DNA from: Sedimentisphaerales bacterium
Lineage (GTDB): Bacteria; Planctomycetota; Phycisphaerae; Sedimentisphaerales; SM23-30
Assembly (NCBI GenBank): GCA_963666285.1
Contig: OY762711.1
DNA: 64,000 nt
Reading direction: 5' to 3' (one strand)
Shown here: piece after piece, positions 37,973-50,624 of the stretch
Layout of the letters: each line of letters opens with the position of its first letter
How positions within the stretch are numbered: the stretch's first letter is position 1
Position numbers and translations under genes: made by a program
Notes under the pieces: model-generated
The model's database searches: none
What the model was told of the DNA's origin: nothing
Seen by the model: the letters and a program-made list of their open reading frames with translations, nothing else

Positions 37973-40900
37973 GCGCTTAACTCTGGAATGCTCTGATAGC
38001 GTATTTCGATACAACTGGCCAATTAAATACACGACTAAACCACTCATTTTCTCTTTCTGGTATTTTAATAACTGAACATGCATTTCCTAACAACAAACTA
38101 ACCACCTGATAATAAACAAATTACAACACAGTTATGCGAGAAAAGAAATATTTCATCATGATGATTATAATTAAAATAGTATTCAAATCCATAAAGGAAA
38201 GCATATAATATAAGAGCGATAAAGCTTGTTAAATACTAGAAGGAATACCCCCGTGTTACAAATTACGTTAGAAGCTGATAATAGTATAGTTGATGAAGTT
38301 GATTTATTCCGTTTCCGAATAAATAATGAACTTGAATCTAAAAACAAATCAGCGCTTGGACAGTATTTTACACCTGCACCAATATGTCGATTTATGGCTT
38401 CTTTATTTGATAGTATCCCCTCAAAATCTTATCTTCTAGACCCTGGCTGTGGCACCGGTGGGTTAACTTCGGCTTTTATTGAAGAAGCAATAAACAGAAA
38501 TGAAATAGTAGACATAGAAGCTGATCTATACGACATTGAACCAAAAGTTAAACCATACATTACAGAAGTCAAAAATCTTTGTAGCAAATCTGCAAAAATC
38601 AACTTTATTGAAGACGATTTCATACTAAATTTTGATACAATACTAAATGAATCTTTTTTCAATTCAATTAGTGTTGAAAAATACAGCCATGCAATACTAA
38701 ATCCTCCTTATAAGAAAATTGCGACAAAAAGTAACCATAGAATCTGCTTAAGAAAAGCCGGAGTTGAAATAGTCAACATATATGCCGGTTTTGTTGCCCT
38801 CAGCATACTGCAACTTCGCAAAGGTGGTGAGCTAGTAGCCATTATACCTCGATCTTTTTGTAATGGTTTGTACTATGAGCCTTTTAGAAAATTTATTCTT
38901 AATAGAACTGCAATAAAACACATACACATATTTGAAAGCAGAACAGACGCCTTTTCTGATGAAGATGTTCTTCAGGAAAATATTATTGTTCACTTAGTCA
39001 AAGGCGAAAAACAAAAAGATGTAACAATCACTTCGAGTCCAACATCTGACTTCCATATTGATCCGATTACTAACACATATTCCGCAACAGATATGACTAT
39101 ACGTTCTGTTCCTATTAGCTCAATAGTAAACCAACATGACAGAAATTTATTCATCCATATTGCGGCTAACAACAGAGATCAGGCTATCATAGATAAACTT
39201 AGTATCTTTACTTCAACCTTAGACGACCTAAATATAGAAGTATCAACAGGTCCTGTTGTTGATTTTCGCCTTAAAAATGATCTAAGAGAAAACTATGAAG
39301 ATGGCTTAGCTCCTTTGCTTTACCCTATTCACTTTAAAAACGGATTTAAATGGCCGCAAAAAACAAAAAAACCTAACGCAATCAATATTTCAAAAAAGTC
39401 CAGAAAATGGCTCTGGGATAATACTGGATATTTTGTAATCACAAAACGTTTCAGTTCAAAAGAAGAAAATAGGAGAATAGTTGCGTCAATTTACGATGGT
39501 ACCTTACCAGGAAGGTTTATTGGTTTTGAAAATAAATTAAACGTCTTTCATCACAAAAAAAAAGCTATTGAAAAAGAGCTAGCTTTAGGATTAATGATTT
39601 TTCTTAATTGCACATTGGTAGATAAATACTATCGTCTTTTCGGTGGTCATACACAAGTTAATGCAACAGACCTCAGAGCAATTAAATATCCTGACTTTGA
39701 AACATTGATTAGGCTTGGAAAAAAGGTAGATAGTCCATCATTATCACAAAAAGAAATTGACGACTTAATTGAAAAGGAAATTATCAAAATGACCGGGAAT
39801 GATAATAATAACCCTATTGAGATGCAAAATAAAATAGACCAAGCCTTACAGATACTCATTGACGTTGGAATGCCTCGCGCTCAGCAAAATGAAAGGTCTG
39901 CACTCACTTTATTAGCATTACTAAACCTGACACCACAAAAGCAATGGAGTGATGCTGAATCTCCAATGATAGGCGTAACACCGATAATGGATTGGTGCCT
40001 TAATGAATATGGTAAAGAATACGCGCCAAATACAAGAGAGACATTTCGCAGACAAACTCTTCACCAATTTGTTGATGGTGGAGTTTGTCTTTATAATCCA
40101 GATAAACCAGATAGACCTGTTAACAGCCCAAAGGCTTGTTATCAAATTACTCCTGAATTGCTCAAAATAATCAAACATTACGGCACCACCAATTGGACCC
40201 CATATTTAAATCGCTGGCTTAAAAAACGGAAAACACTGGTTCAAAAATATGCCAAAAGCCGCGATATGGCAATGATCCCTTTAACTTTAGATACTGGAGA
40301 GGAAATATTATTAAGTCCAGGAGATCATAGTCAATTAATCTGCGATATCGTTAATGAATTTGGGCAGCGTTTTGTTCCTGGCGCAGAAGTTATATACTTA
40401 GGCGATACTGGAGCTAAAGAAGAATTTTTCAATAAGGAAAAATTAGAAGAACTTGGAGTAACCGTTAATCGAAAGGGTAAATTGCCAGATGTTGTATTGT
40501 ATTGGCAAAACAAAGACTGGCTGCTACTTATTGAATCTGTAACCAGTCATGGACCAGTAGATAGTAAAAGACATTCTGAACTATCAGAATTGTTCAAAAA
40601 TGCAAAACCAGGATTGGTTTATGTAACAGCATTCCCAAATCGCTCCATAATGGCAAAATACCTTACTGATATTTCATGGGAAACCGAAGTCTGGACAGCA
40701 GATACCCCAACCCATTTGATACATTTTAACGGTGACAGGTTTCTTGGACCACATAATAATAATTCACAAACTTGATAGTATAACTGCAGTTTTTTACAAA
40801 AAACTTTTATACATTTCAAGTCAAAACAATCTCCTAAAAGACCTTCCTGCTAAGTTTTAAATTTTGAACAAAGCGTGAGACAATATTGCCTACCCACCTA

Positions 40901-45744: not shown

Positions 45745-46077
45745 AGTTTCTGCTCGATAACATAAACTTAAATCAATATAAATTACCTTTTCGCACTTTC
45801 CACCTTGGAATGTGCACGCCCAAAAGGCAGCGTGAAGCATTAAAAATAAAATATAACGTGTGACAGCTTATCCTGGAATCCCGTACTTAACCTGGCAAAG
45901 GATATCAGGGGACAGCCAAACACATAAATCTCTCACTTTTATACTTCGCATCTTTTCAAGGCAATAAAACCTTCCGTTTACCGGTGCGCCTTGAAATAGT
46001 GTGCCGCACAAAATTGCAAAAAAAATATGAGCTGATTCTGAAACAGCCTGTAGACAAAATTGAAAGGATATATAATT

Positions 46078-47967
46078 ATGAATGCTAAAATATATATACA
46101 GACGTTTATTTTGATAGTATCTCTGGCAGGAAGTCAATTATACGGCCAGTTAAATGATTCTGTCCCGCCGATTCCTGGCCAGGAAGAGCCTGAAATATTA
46201 AACCAGGGACCTATCCATGAAGCGTTCGCCCAACCGGTCGAACTGGTAACCGAGTCAGGCATTGTCTCACCGCAAGAGCCGCCCGACGATATCATAGAAG
46301 ATCCTGCCGAGGAAAAACCCGAAAGCTCCAGATATGTCTGGATACCCGGATACTGGGCCTGGGACTCCGAGCGAAGCGATTACGTCTGGATCAGCGGCTG
46401 CTGGAGAATTACCCCGGTAGGCATGTCATGGGTACCGGGCTACTGGGACGAAATTTCTACCGGCTGGCAATGGGTACCGGGATTCTGGATATCCACTACC
46501 CAGGCCGAACAGATCAAATACCTGCCCGAACCACCGGCAATTGCCGAAACTGAACCACCGGTAACTGTCGTTGAGACTGAGAAAATCTGGGTGCCGCCCT
46601 GCTATTACTGGCACCAAAATAATTATATCCTCCGAGCCGGATATTGGCTCGACCCGCGGGATAATTGGGTATGGGTTCCATCCCATTACTCCTGGACACC
46701 GCATGGATATGTTTTTGTCTCTGGATACTGGGATTACGCTTTGGAAACACGAGGCATCTTGTATGCACCTGTTTACTTCCCAAGACGCTTCCATAGACCT
46801 CATAGATACACTTACTCATTGGGTGTTGTCGTGAATATCAGAAATCTTGAATTCAGCCTGTTCAGCCACCCGCGTTACTGCCATTATTATTTCGGTGATT
46901 ACTACAGCGACTTTTATGTCAGTATCGGAATTTTCCCATGGTTTGAATTCAAGAAACGGCACGGTTGGTACGATCCGATCTACGAACATAAACGCTGTCG
47001 ACACCGTCGAAAAGATCCGCATTGGGGCGATCATATCCGACATGAATATGAACTCCGGCGAACAGATGCTAAACGACGTCCGCCACGAACCTATCGCGAA
47101 ATTAAATCTCGACACTTACAATCGCCTAAAGATCATCGTAACGATTTTCGATTCGTTGAACCGGTTAAGTCATATACCAAAAAGAAGGATACACCATTTA
47201 AGTCCTACAGAATGGACCACAAGGAACGTCTGAAAATCGTTGGCCATGCAGACAGGGTAAATAAATCCCGTCAGCAGCGAAGAACGCTGGAGTCACATCG
47301 GTCCGCTCCGACATTCGAAAGGTCATCTAATAAATCCCATCCATCGGAAAGAAAAATGTCTGAAAAGAGTTCACGCACTACAAGTCCTGCAAGGCGAGAC
47401 CGAACTACACCTCCGACCAGGATTCAACCGGCACCACAAAGAAAAACACAAACCGACTCACCTGCCAGAAATCGAACGACTCCGGCAACCAAAACCAGAA
47501 CTGACTCGCCAACCAGAACCCAACCAACGCCACAACGAAAAACGCAGCCTGACTCGCCAACCGAGGCCAGGCCTGCACCATCATCAAAATCTAAGCCTGA
47601 CAATTCGTCCAAGACACGGTCCAACTCTCCGACCAGATTCCGGCCGGCTCCTCCAACAAACTCCCGGTCAGTTGCACCTGCCAGAGTCCAGCCTAACTCA
47701 TCAACCAAGTCTCAACCTTCATCACCAGCCAAAGTTAAACAGCCGACCAAACAATCATCAGAAAAACAAAAAAGCAATAAGAATATTTCTCCGAGACAGC
47801 AATATTATTCAAAATCATCTAATAAAGAAAAAAGTTCCAGCAGCAGTTCCCAGAACAAAACTACTTCAAAGCCAGAAAGAAACTCGCAACCACAACAGCG
47901 TAAAGATTCTGACAAAAAGGATAAAAAACAAAAAAGCGGAAGAGGTGTAGGCCGCTGGCATAGATAA
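46078..47967 (+). CDS. Exported YXWGXW-repeat protein with basic low-complexity tail
   Basis: Signal peptide; RYVWIPGYWAW, YVWISGCW, WVPGYW, WQWVPGFW repeats; C-terminus rich in P/S/T/K/R. Confidence 0.85.
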   Translation: MNAKIYIQTFILIVSLAGSQLYGQLNDSVPPIPGQEEPEILNQGPIHEAFAQPVELVTESGIVSPQEPPDDIIEDPAEEKPESSRYVWIPGYWAWDSERSDYVWISGCWRITPVGMSWVPGYWDEISTGWQWVPGFWISTTQAEQIKYLPEPPAIAETEPPVTVVETEKIWVPPCYYWHQNNYILRAGYWLDPRDNWVWVPSHYSWTPHGYVFVSGYWDYALETRGILYAPVYFPRRFHRPHRYTYSLGVVVNIRNLEFSLFSHPRYCHYYFGDYYSDFYVSIGIFPWFEFKKRHGWYDPIYEHKRCRHRRKDPHWGDHIRHEYELRRTDAKRRPPRTYREIKSRHLQSPKDHRNDFRFVEPVKSYTKKKDTPFKSYRMDHKERLKIVGHADRVNKSRQQRRTLESHRSAPTFERSSNKSHPSERKMSEKSSRTTSPARRDRTTPPTRIQPAPQRKTQTDSPARNRTTPATKTRTDSPTRTQPTPQRKTQPDSPTEARPAPSSKSKPDNSSKTRSNSPTRFRPAPPTNSRSVAPARVQPNSSTKSQPSSPAKVKQPTKQSSEKQKSNKNISPRQQYYSKSSNKEKSSSSSSQNKTTSKPERNSQPQQRKDSDKKDKKQKSGRGVGRWHR

Positions 47968-48215
47968 TCTACATAATAACCAATCAGTTTAACTTAATTT
48001 GTTTTAATATATTTTATGTTAAATTTCGCACTGCAAACCTTTAAACATTATTCATACTCCAACCGACTCAAACTGTCTACCGGGCAGTTTGAGTTATTAT
48101 TTTGTAGCATTATTTACATAAATAAGGTACGATATCGCCTAATGAATAATTTAATCGGGATATGCAGTTGGTCTATCCCATTCGACATCAATCTACTAAT
48201 TGAAAGGCAGGTAAC

Positions 48216-49469
48216 ATGAAACATAAATACTGCGGTTTACTCAAAATTGCTTCAGTCTTGTTGCTCTTCTTTACAATATGCCTGACCGGCTGCGAAAAGA
48301 AAACAGATGAAACTTCCAGTCCGCCGGATAATGAATCTTCTGCCAATAATACCGCTGCAGAAAATGACGTCAAACAGCTTGACCCTGAAAAAGCATTTGT
48401 TTCTGCCCCGGATGTCTCTATTGCTGCTCTAAAGGAAATCAAAGCTGACCAACTCGAAATGAAAGATCCTCCTTCTTTTGTCAGACGTATGAAACGTAAT
48501 AATAAAGAATCACTTAAAATGGGTACTATCAGTTTGGGTGAACATCAATATATGGTCCTGCTCGGCGATAACACCAGCTATGAATTCCATATTCAGGATG
48601 TTAATAAAGACCAGGCCCCTTACTGGTGGGGATCATGGAGCCTTCACTCCAGGCACCTGCTGAAAGGCAAGTATTATGAATTCAAACTGATTGAAAACGG
48701 CACCAAAATTGCCGGCAGACCATATACCGGCGAGTTTGGTATATTTAAGCTTGGCAAAGGCGAAAGAAACATCGAAAAAATGGAGATGAACGGTTCAATC
48801 GAACAAACCGGCGATGTTGGAGCACCTGTCGGCGATCTATCTAAACTCATGTGGCCTGACCCTGTTGCGGAATGCTCTGTACCGGTCGGCGACTATACCG
48901 CTAACCTTATGAGCGTCGTATATGACGATCTGAAAATCGATATTTCTCATAACTACTATACCAATGTCAAGGGACAATCTGCCACGAAAAACGTCGTTTA
49001 CGGCATGCAGGTACGAAAGGATAAACCCTACATACTTGATTTCTCAAATGAACCAGCAATTATCTTCGAATCGCCCAAAAATGACGGAGATACATATTCG
49101 CTTGGCAATGAAATAAAGTTTTCCGCGGTTTTGATTGATCCAAAACTCGATATCATGATTAGAGGTTTGGACGACACCTCCCAAAAAGTAGAAAAAGAAT
49201 ACAAGGATAATGACGGCAATGTAATCCACACCGCTAAAATATCCAAGTCACTTGACCCCAAGGTAGTCGTCACCCGTTCTAACGGCGAGGTTGTAGGAGA
49301 GGGCGTTATGCCCTTTGGCTGAGGCGGCACATGCGGGTATGCGTGGCGCATACCGGAAGACCTGAAACTTAACGGCGACAGCGAAGAATTTACAGTGACC
49401 GTTACCTACGAAACTAAGATACTGTACGGTAACGTTTCTGCTCAGCGAAAAATTAAAATTACCAAATAG
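48216..49469 (+). CDS. Lipoprotein, candidate selenoprotein (UGA at codon 369, U-G-G-T-C motif, 417 aa)
   Basis: Lipobox LTGC; TGA at 49320-49322 followed by 48 sense codons to TAG at 49467-49469; SECIS-like hairpin; terminator only after the TAG. Confidence 0.75.
49336..49354 (+). promoter_or_regulatory. Putative bacterial SECIS element
   Basis: GGTATGC-GTGGC-GCATACC perfect stem; G-containing apical loop about 20 nt after the UGA. Confidence 0.65.
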
Positions 49470-49513
49470 TTAATTTCATCTCAATTTAACATAACAATTG
49501 ACTCAACCACATG

Positions 49514-49543
49514 CCGCCTGAGATTATCTCAGGCGGTTTTTTT
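49514..49543 (+). terminator. Rho-independent terminator
   Basis: CCGCCTGAGA-TTA-TCTCAGGCGG followed by T7. Confidence 0.85.
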
Positions 49544-49814
49544 ATTACTATTGCCAACTTTCGCTATTTTCAGAGGTTGCCTTAATTGTAAGCAACGCTC
49601 AAATGGAACCAGATGAAGGTACCATACAAATCCTGCGGCTAATATCACAAATGATGCTATATATAGAATTAAATTTACATAAAAATACAAAATATCACCG
49701 ACAAAACCGCCCCTTATACTGAAAAGCTCTTGTAACCTTATCAATATTAATTAAAATAAAACCAGGTATAATCTTTTATGAAAACAACCGACACACCCGG
49801 ATAAAAGGAATATA

Positions 49815-50624
49815 ATGAATATCAATAAAACAAAACTTATCTATTTCTCGCCAACTGAAACAACTAAAAAGGTCATGGAAGGTGTCGCCGCCGGAATAAA
49901 TGCCGACAGCACCGAACATCTTAACCTGACCTCACCACAAAATACCGAAAAAATCTTATCAACTTCTCCAGACGAACTCGTAATCATCGGCGCTCCTGTT
50001 TATGCCGGACGACTGCCGAACGATGCCGTCAAACGATTCAGACAGATCAAAGCTGACAACACACCCGCCGTACTGATCGTTGTTTACGGCAACAGAGAAT
50101 TCGAAGATGCTCTGCTGGAACTAAAAGACCTCGCAATTGAATTAGGATTCTGCCCCATAGCTGCCGGTGCGTTTATCGGCGAACATTCTTTTGCCACAAA
50201 CGACATCCCAATCGCCAATGGTCGACCCGATTCTACTGACCTCCAAAAGGCAAAAGAATTTGGAACGAAGATCAACGAAATTGTCACTTCCATAAATGAA
50301 ACTGACAAAAATATCGATTTGCCAATACCCGGCAATTATCCACATCGAAACGGGGCACAGCCGATGGGATTCGCACCGGCCGTCAATAAAGATACCTGTA
50401 CCAAATGCGGCCTGTGTGTCACGGTATGCCCGACTGCTGCGATATCGCTCAACGATTCCATCCAAACTGCAGTAGATTTGTGCATTCAATGCTGTGCCTG
50501 CATTAAAAAATGTCCGGTCGATGCATTGTCTTGGCAGGACGATAAAATCACAGGCATAGCCCATCGTTTGAATTCTAATTGCCAGACACGCAAAGAACCC
50601 CAATATTTCGGCATAAACAAATAA
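49815..50624 (+). CDS. Flavodoxin-fold + 2x[4Fe-4S] ferredoxin protein (EFR1-like)
   Basis: YFSPTETT, PVYAGR, VYGNREFEDALLEL, CTKCGLCVTVCP, CIQCCACIKKCP. Confidence 0.9.
   Translation: MNINKTKLIYFSPTETTKKVMEGVAAGINADSTEHLNLTSPQNTEKILSTSPDELVIIGAPVYAGRLPNDAVKRFRQIKADNTPAVLIVVYGNREFEDALLELKDLAIELGFCPIAAGAFIGEHSFATNDIPIANGRPDSTDLQKAKEFGTKINEIVTSINETDKNIDLPIPGNYPHRNGAQPMGFAPAVNKDTCTKCGLCVTVCPTAAISLNDSIQTAVDLCIQCCACIKKCPVDALSWQDDKITGIAHRLNSNCQTRKEPQYFGINK

Follow-up and report, generated by a model that had tools for sequence, protein, structure and literature searches.

The window analysed in this study, a stretch of 64,000 nucleotides from a Sedimentisphaerales genome (GenBank assembly GCA_963666285.1, contig OY762711.1; genome G000), contains on its plus strand a gene that starts at position 48216 and is annotated in the database as encoding a protein of 368 aa (P0002), ended by a TGA codon. 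Rereading of the sequence confirmed the features to which an earlier note on this DNA had drawn attention, all on the plus strand: the TGA (49320-49322) follows ...MPFG after 368 codons, 48 open codons separate it from a TAG (49467-49469), a Cys codon (49332-49334) stands four codons after it, a perfect hairpin is found at 49336-49354, and an intrinsic-terminator-like hairpin with a T run (49513-49545, stem 49513-49537) follows the read-through stop. When the TGA is read through, the gene (48216-49469) is predicted to encode a selenolipoprotein of 417 aa with selenocysteine (Sec) at residue 369 (U369) and Cys at residue 373, the latter being a probable resolving residue or second ligand. A purine-rich stretch (48203-48212) is a putative ribosome-binding site, and the region 48216-48293 would encode a signal peptide with a lipobox pattern at residues 23-26, Cys26 being the predicted lipidation site; a lipobox-like regular expression, as a pattern match only, was also found in 83 of 120 close homologues. 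No promoter-like site stood out on the plus strand upstream of the gene. A terminator-like hairpin, likewise a pattern match only, closes the upstream gene at 48065-48095, so that the gene at 48216 is probably transcribed alone. The TGA codon is covered letter for letter by two public contigs, of which one (X1) is possibly source data and the other (X3) derives from the same study; a third contig from another study showed 13 differences over 49244-49477, none of them listed in the TGA codon. Since public contigs show the same codon, the TGA is not an assembly error. The plus-strand neighbours of the gene encode a protein with WXXGXW repeats and a long tail of low complexity (46060-47967) and an EFR1-family flavodoxin-ferredoxin (49815-50624). 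Neither recurs beside orthologues, and no conserved neighbourhood could be found among 55 loci of close orthologues within 4 kb, the neighbours being variable. The window also carries an 849-aa ORF with an NPPY motif (38226-40775, plus strand), in which an adenine methyltransferase and a restriction endonuclease are presumably fused.

An AlphaFold model of the read-through product, built with Cys in place of U from 129 sequences (mean pLDDT 91), showed three beta domains preceded by a signal peptide and a disordered linker. Domain A (approximately residues 61-171; 48396-48728) had no clear structural match (best Z 6.3, rmsd 3.1, 95 residues aligned; no Foldseek match at E<=0.001), and domain B (approximately residues 172-277; 48729-49046), which carries a conserved PVGDY motif, showed a weak beta-sandwich likeness (Z ~4) and no clear fold match, neither result being proof of a new fold. 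The third domain, hereafter the Sec module (approximately residues 278-417; 49047-49466), was modelled as an Ig-like/MG2-like sandwich consisting of strands only, which is complete only with the read-through tail; the proposal of the earlier note that the extension supplies beta strands completing a domain agrees with this model. The predicted Sec369 falls in the loop that joins strand 359-364 to strand 373-378. In fold, residues 278-417 matched the MG2 domains of alpha-2-macroglobulin (Salmonella A2M, 4u48: Z 10.4, rmsd 2.5, 99 aligned) and of C3 (9qk2: Z 9.7, rmsd 2.5, 99 aligned), but glycoside hydrolases and S-layer proteins have Ig-like domains that scored equally well (Z 10.0-10.9). Identity in the top rows was 9-19%, and CopC was among the lower matches (Z 8.6, rmsd 2.9, 96 aligned). 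A profile search of PDB sequences gave one weak match (E 0.018). The Pfam MG2 model (PF01835) matched weakly in 10 of 36 module members (best E 0.007) and did not match the domain of the window gene itself; unlike MG2 proteins, the 417-aa protein has no macroglobulin architecture.

Taken alone, the signals of the gene at 48216 are within chance for its genome. An extension of at least 48 open codons follows 34 of the 448 long TGA-ended ORFs of G000, and extensions of the same length were observed at 150 of 1532 TAA and 41 of 591 TAG stops. A simple hairpin filter was passed by 33 of 675 TGA, 56 of 1201 TAA and 17 of 461 TAG sites, and the 56-nt fold at the TGA in question had a z of -0.71. As these single-sequence signals are not beyond chance, the case for recoding rests on the comparison of homologues.

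The nearest named homologues came from Anaerohalosphaera sp., Sedimentisphaerales and Planctomycetota, and one more distant cluster belonged to Candidatus Sumerlaeota. Of 319 protein matches 120 were listed, and 118 of these, including the window's own shortened product, end exactly at the UGA column, in PFG or SFG. An exhaustive search yielded 399 representatives (50% identity); among the best 150 of them, 138 end in F, Y or W followed by G. A search of genome contigs with a single protein as query returned one locus only. The DNA survey comprised 83 loci, some of them near-duplicates (80 kept of 146 metagenome matches, and three others including the window gene); 94 alignments covered the column, with TGA in 92 and a loop deletion in two, while three loci fell short of it. 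The tail is conserved in forms having a single domain after the column, and ends 46-50 codons past it, which is consistent with the TAG at 49467 being the true stop. Conservation of the TGA and beyond it, which the earlier note had named as support, is thus found, and so are homologues with Cys at the column, of which there were only two (L128 and L129); the Cys of a further protein (P0234) was left uncounted, as it looks like a misaligned loop-deletion form. Trp, the residue that in the earlier note would have spoken for a nonsense mutation, was seen at the column in none of the homologues examined, and other residues do occur there: full-length forms without TGA have Ser, Gly, Arg, Leu, Glu or Cys at this position, or show a deletion. 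One such full-length homologue without Sec comes from a genome with tRNA-Sec (G109). As these homologues are intact, Sec is dispensable for the fold.

Distinct TGA contexts (n = 104) were picked with a motif pattern that demands TGA and favours Cys or small residues at position +4. The motif of the approximately 140-residue module is G-U-x-G-T-C-x-Y-S-W-R; its G-U-x-G part was present in 99 of the 104 contexts and is too short to be diagnostic. Cys at +4 was likewise found in 99 of 104, under a selection that favours it. The Cys four residues after the TGA is thus common, as had been proposed, but not invariant, being replaced by Ser in one paralogue of G000 and by Ala, Thr, Tyr or Asn elsewhere. 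Likewise, the U-G-G-T-C motif is real, but it is not simply a C-terminal signature of one lipoprotein; it is part of a mobile Ig/MG2-like domain that occurs in many architectures and is often internal. Several lineages have U without C and others have C without U, and both were lost together through deletion of the loop in several close homologues. In a quick unrooted IQ-TREE tree of 77 module sequences (64 with U), non-Sec forms appeared as small tips nested among the U forms. The tree supports this nesting, not a formal ancestral state, and suggests that non-Sec forms may have arisen by repeated loss.

The predicted bacterial SECIS (bSECIS) hairpin (49336-49354) starts at the 14th base past the TGA; it has a stem of 7-8 bp and, as a 19-mer, a folding energy of -10.4 kcal/mol. 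Its loop, GUGGC, has G in first position and begins 20 nt after the UGA. The consensus given in PMC13188914 is a loop of 3-9 nt, a stem of 4-16 bp with G in loop positions 1-2, a distance of 16-37 nt from the UGA and an MFE of -7.5 or below; judged by hand, the hairpin lies within this consensus on all four points. Six core pairs were each formed in 98-102 of the 104 TGA contexts. The Arg codon of the motif follows its pairing partner, ACG occurring with CGT in 42 of 42 cases and TCG with CGA in 39 of 43. Among 41 contexts with distinct hairpins, 85% of the cells were paired, and changes on both sides were observed in six of seven pairs. The covariation score of 0.38 was reached by none of 500 shuffles and slid registers gave at most 0.21; since the sequences are related, this is not a probability. 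In the Cys forms of two genomes (G072 and G225) the hairpin is lost, with -3.5 and -3.7 as compared to a median of -11.7. A homologue lacking the motif (L084) still folds a hairpin of -8.4.

The genome of the window (6.35 Mb, 97% complete) contains selA, selB, selC and selD, all over curated cut-offs; the Sec machinery that the earlier note had proposed to look for is therefore present. Two selD genes were found, and tRNA-Sec is the only tRNA found with a UCA anticodon. In G072 and G225, which carry Cys forms and are 91% complete, neither selA nor a SelB over the cut-off was found, and tRNA-Sec candidates scored 47-51 bits versus 75-76 for clear ones. In a sample of 401 genomes of the phylum, the module was found in 71 and selA in 288; 62 of 63 genomes with a TGA-bearing match have selA, the exception (G063, 90% complete) giving no selA match. 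In the order, the module was found in 37 of 151 genomes and selA in 33, all of which are among the 37, the four genomes with the module in which no selA was found being 78-86% complete. All 150 module matches in these 151 genomes contain TGA, its exact column being unchecked in these rows. These counts are to be read with the limits that related genomes are not independent samples and that absence means not found. The frequency of selA thus differs between the phylum sample (288/401) and the order (33/151). In three genomes of the window organism's own genus neither selA nor the module was found, indicating that the trait is patchy. Formate dehydrogenase (FdhA) is the commonest bacterial selenoprotein and the usual client of the Sec machinery. 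No FdhA was found in G000; in the order it was found in 23 genomes, of which six have selA, and none of its 25 matches contains a stop. That a patchy quarter of the order, in which FdhA lacks UGA, has Sec machinery is explained by the module, which co-occurs almost exactly with selA and appears to be a main client of Sec machinery in Sedimentisphaerales.

Taken together, the comparisons make it very likely that the UGA is read as selenocysteine and that the module defines a new selenoprotein family, a judgement that concerns recoding and family, not function. The sequence comparisons give strong support to SelB-dependent recoding at the hairpin: SelB with tRNA-Sec, bound to the downstream hairpin, would recode UGA 49320 to selenocysteine and yield an exported lipoprotein of 417 aa, selenium insertion and export both being predicted. 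Sec369 would then be placed in an exposed beta-hairpin loop of the C-terminal Ig/MG2-like domain, four residues before Cys373, and this domain would be a portable module of several lipid- or membrane-anchored envelope proteins per genome. The alternative, a genuine stop or a nonsense mutation at this TGA, or its decoding as Trp or Cys through an alternative code or leaky read-through, would account for the chance level of the single-sequence signals and for the fact that every gene caller ends at the TGA. It would leave unexplained the conservation of TGA and tail over hundreds of sequences, the covarying hairpin and a module distribution that tracks selA, and no Trp occurs at the column; we regard it as highly improbable. 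An alternative genetic code in particular was rejected, as the UCA anticodon was found only in tRNA-Sec and extensions are not in excess after TGA, which terminates 448 long ORFs in G000.

Seven module copies were observed in G000, four of them lipoproteins including the window gene. A single-domain copy of 178 aa has an N-terminal hydrophobic segment and lies directly upstream of selA-selB. In a 964-aa copy the UGA is followed by carbohydrate-binding domains (F5/8 and LamG) and, at the C terminus, a hydrophobic anchor, and in a 373-aa copy, the one with Ser at +4, by approximately seven membrane segments; read-through is needed to reach these parts. Up to 13 copies per genome were found in the genomes searched.

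The Sec island of G000 (C1:4437891-4446890; L154), outside which the window gene itself lies, has selB, selA and the single-domain module gene on its minus strand, whereas its plus strand carries an SsuA/SaoX-like ABC transporter, selD and selC. G222 has a comparable arrangement. The SelD of this island carries two fused parts, a Cys-rich segment at its N terminus and a CMD/AhpD domain at its C terminus. A 45-codon ORF (C1:4442134-4442268, plus strand) with a degenerate copy of the UGA motif and of the hairpin lies in the leader of the ABC-selD-selC operon. It may be what is left of a module gene, since intact ones are syntenic with it in G222, or else a leader that senses selenium. Truncated module copies also flank selA in G206 and G254. 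The second SelD of G000 (C1:1953363-1954280; L005) has an in-frame TGA in an atypical N-terminal C-A-G-U-V-G-K motif. Within the G000 cluster, the neighbouring thioredoxin-like protein lacks CxxC. The regions around selA in G206, G254 and G006 (L144, L146 and L149) contain genes for 2-hydroxyacyl-CoA dehydratases (double-cubane-like), a SAM methyltransferase and MtaA/CmuA-family methyltransferases. Elsewhere in G000, nine tRNA genes are clustered at C1:5226832-5229866, and contigs C2-C4, of 65-67 kb each, are without tRNAs.

A second putative selenoprotein family, apparently also unlisted, was observed; it consists of exported proteins of approximately 410-460 aa that are interrupted at Y-[ML]-U-[NF]-C-[ML]. 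Its members are G000:C1:4495735-4497021 (plus strand, TGA at 4496149) and, on the minus strand, L099:3434-4825, L106:3864-5210 and L109:1204-2511. A hairpin is present in the G000 member; the members in the three metagenome loci lie divergent from the module cluster. The L099 member gave no Pfam or NCBIfam match.

In its recoding signals the module resembles known bacterial Sec insertion, with an in-frame UGA, a hairpin that lies within the coding sequence and has its loop, beginning with G, 20-21 nt downstream, and an MFE below -7.5; the full machinery is present and, as far as the legend to Fig. 2 of PMC13188914 describes it, the mechanism shows no difference. Neither Pfam nor NCBIfam (release 20.0) gave anything over the cut-off for the full protein or for 36 module sequences, in keeping with the earlier view that the protein belongs to no recognised family. 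Thioredoxin-fold UxxC/CxxU selenoproteins share with the module a Sec and a nearby Cys and possibly selenenylsulfide chemistry, but the module is all-beta, has i,i+4 spacing (UxxxC) and matched no thioredoxin family, so that the earlier note was right to set the protein apart from the thioredoxin type. The DUF1573 domain is Ig-like, and the DUF1573/OS_HP2 selenoprotein (PF07610) resembles the module in that its Sec belongs to a small domain of beta-sandwich type in exported proteins; its motif is UGC, in contrast to UxxxC. PF07610 matched one of 36 module members (E 0.046), and the five DUF1573 matches of G000 all lie off the module genes. Identity with DUF1573/OS_HP2 was therefore rejected, there being no UGC motif and no PF07610 match over the cut-off. 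Hypothetical protein DG (NF049953) shares the local G-U-x-G motif; PMC12013277 lists it among the deep-Sep predictions with a GUxG motif. The NF049953 model, of 172 positions and from Desulfosediminicola, did not match P0001 or any of the 36 module sequences at E<=0.1, and this identity was likewise rejected; across the whole of G000 the model matched nowhere, and neither did the control. Six motif strings were without match in four deep-Sep supplements (PMC12013277), and a hypothetical protein GOS_A is listed without model or sequence in PMC9312934. The module is absent from the 119 families in Table 1 of PMC13188914, none of which, as tabulated there, has UxxxC or an MG2-like domain. In the literature covered, in which Haft and Tolstoy 2025 was represented only through the table and reference list of PMC13188914, no description of the module family was found. 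The module is thus very probably a selenoprotein family so far undescribed, combining a known recoding mechanism with a new fold context and motif.

As to function, we lean, at somewhat less than even chances, towards a redox-active selenol/selenenylsulfide centre facing the periplasm or the outside, in which Sec would be the residue that reacts and Cys the one that resolves. A redox role is favoured because U is more conserved than C, because joint loss is frequent and because genomes lacking Sec substitute Cys. Alternatively, the Sec/Cys pair might serve at the cell surface to capture, detoxify or sense soft metals (Hg, Cu, Ag, Cd) by binding them. Such a role would suit the exposed loop on a non-enzymatic Ig-like scaffold, the likeness to CopC and the many copies per genome, and several bacterial selenoproteins tabulated in Table 1 of PMC13188914 bind metal; around the motif of the module, however, neither His nor Met nor a further Cys is conserved, no metal-resistance genes recur among annotated neighbours, and we consider metal binding unlikely.

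A role of the module in periplasmic capture, delivery, storage or sensing of selenium for an adjacent transporter and SelD seems about equally unlikely. It is suggested by gene position: 25 of 33 order genomes have a module copy no further than 5 kb from selA, and 31 have one within 12 kb (in the phylum sample, the 5-kb count was 11 of the 28 genomes with a listed selA position), the single-domain member directly precedes selA-selB in G000, and the transporter and selD share the island in G000 and G222, with selC too in G000. Clustering of Sec machinery with client genes is, however, an established pattern and expected from co-transfer; the window gene and its close orthologues are solitary in variable neighbourhoods, and Cys forms persist in genomes in which no Sec machinery was found. 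Less probable still is a structural Se-S or intermolecular Se-Se staple of envelope proteins under strongly reducing conditions. Scaffolds that are all-beta, resemble adhesins or S-layers and are anchored by lipid or in the membrane would fit a staple, as would the joint loss of U and C, but in several lineages one residue occurs without the other, and the residue sits in a small loop and bridges no distant strands.

The family adds to the current inventory of selenoproteins a large group whose UxxxC motif and fold context are missing from it, and it indicates that hundreds of database proteins are cut off at the UGA codon. In the usual picture, as the 2026 review has it, Cys homologues far outnumber Sec forms (PMC13188914); the module family is a counter-example, and it was probably because Sec forms prevail over Cys that searches for Sec/Cys pairs missed it. 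We tentatively propose that a portable Sec-Ig module, carried by many unrelated envelope proteins, may perform selenium chemistry at the cell surface through a non-thioredoxin UxxxC loop with an undescribed substrate, Sec being the prevailing and probably ancestral form and Cys a rare, derived one, and that it may be the main reason why the order keeps or acquires its Sec island in place of a formate dehydrogenase client. The single-domain member beside selA offers a small and directly testable handle on this extracytoplasmic selenium chemistry.
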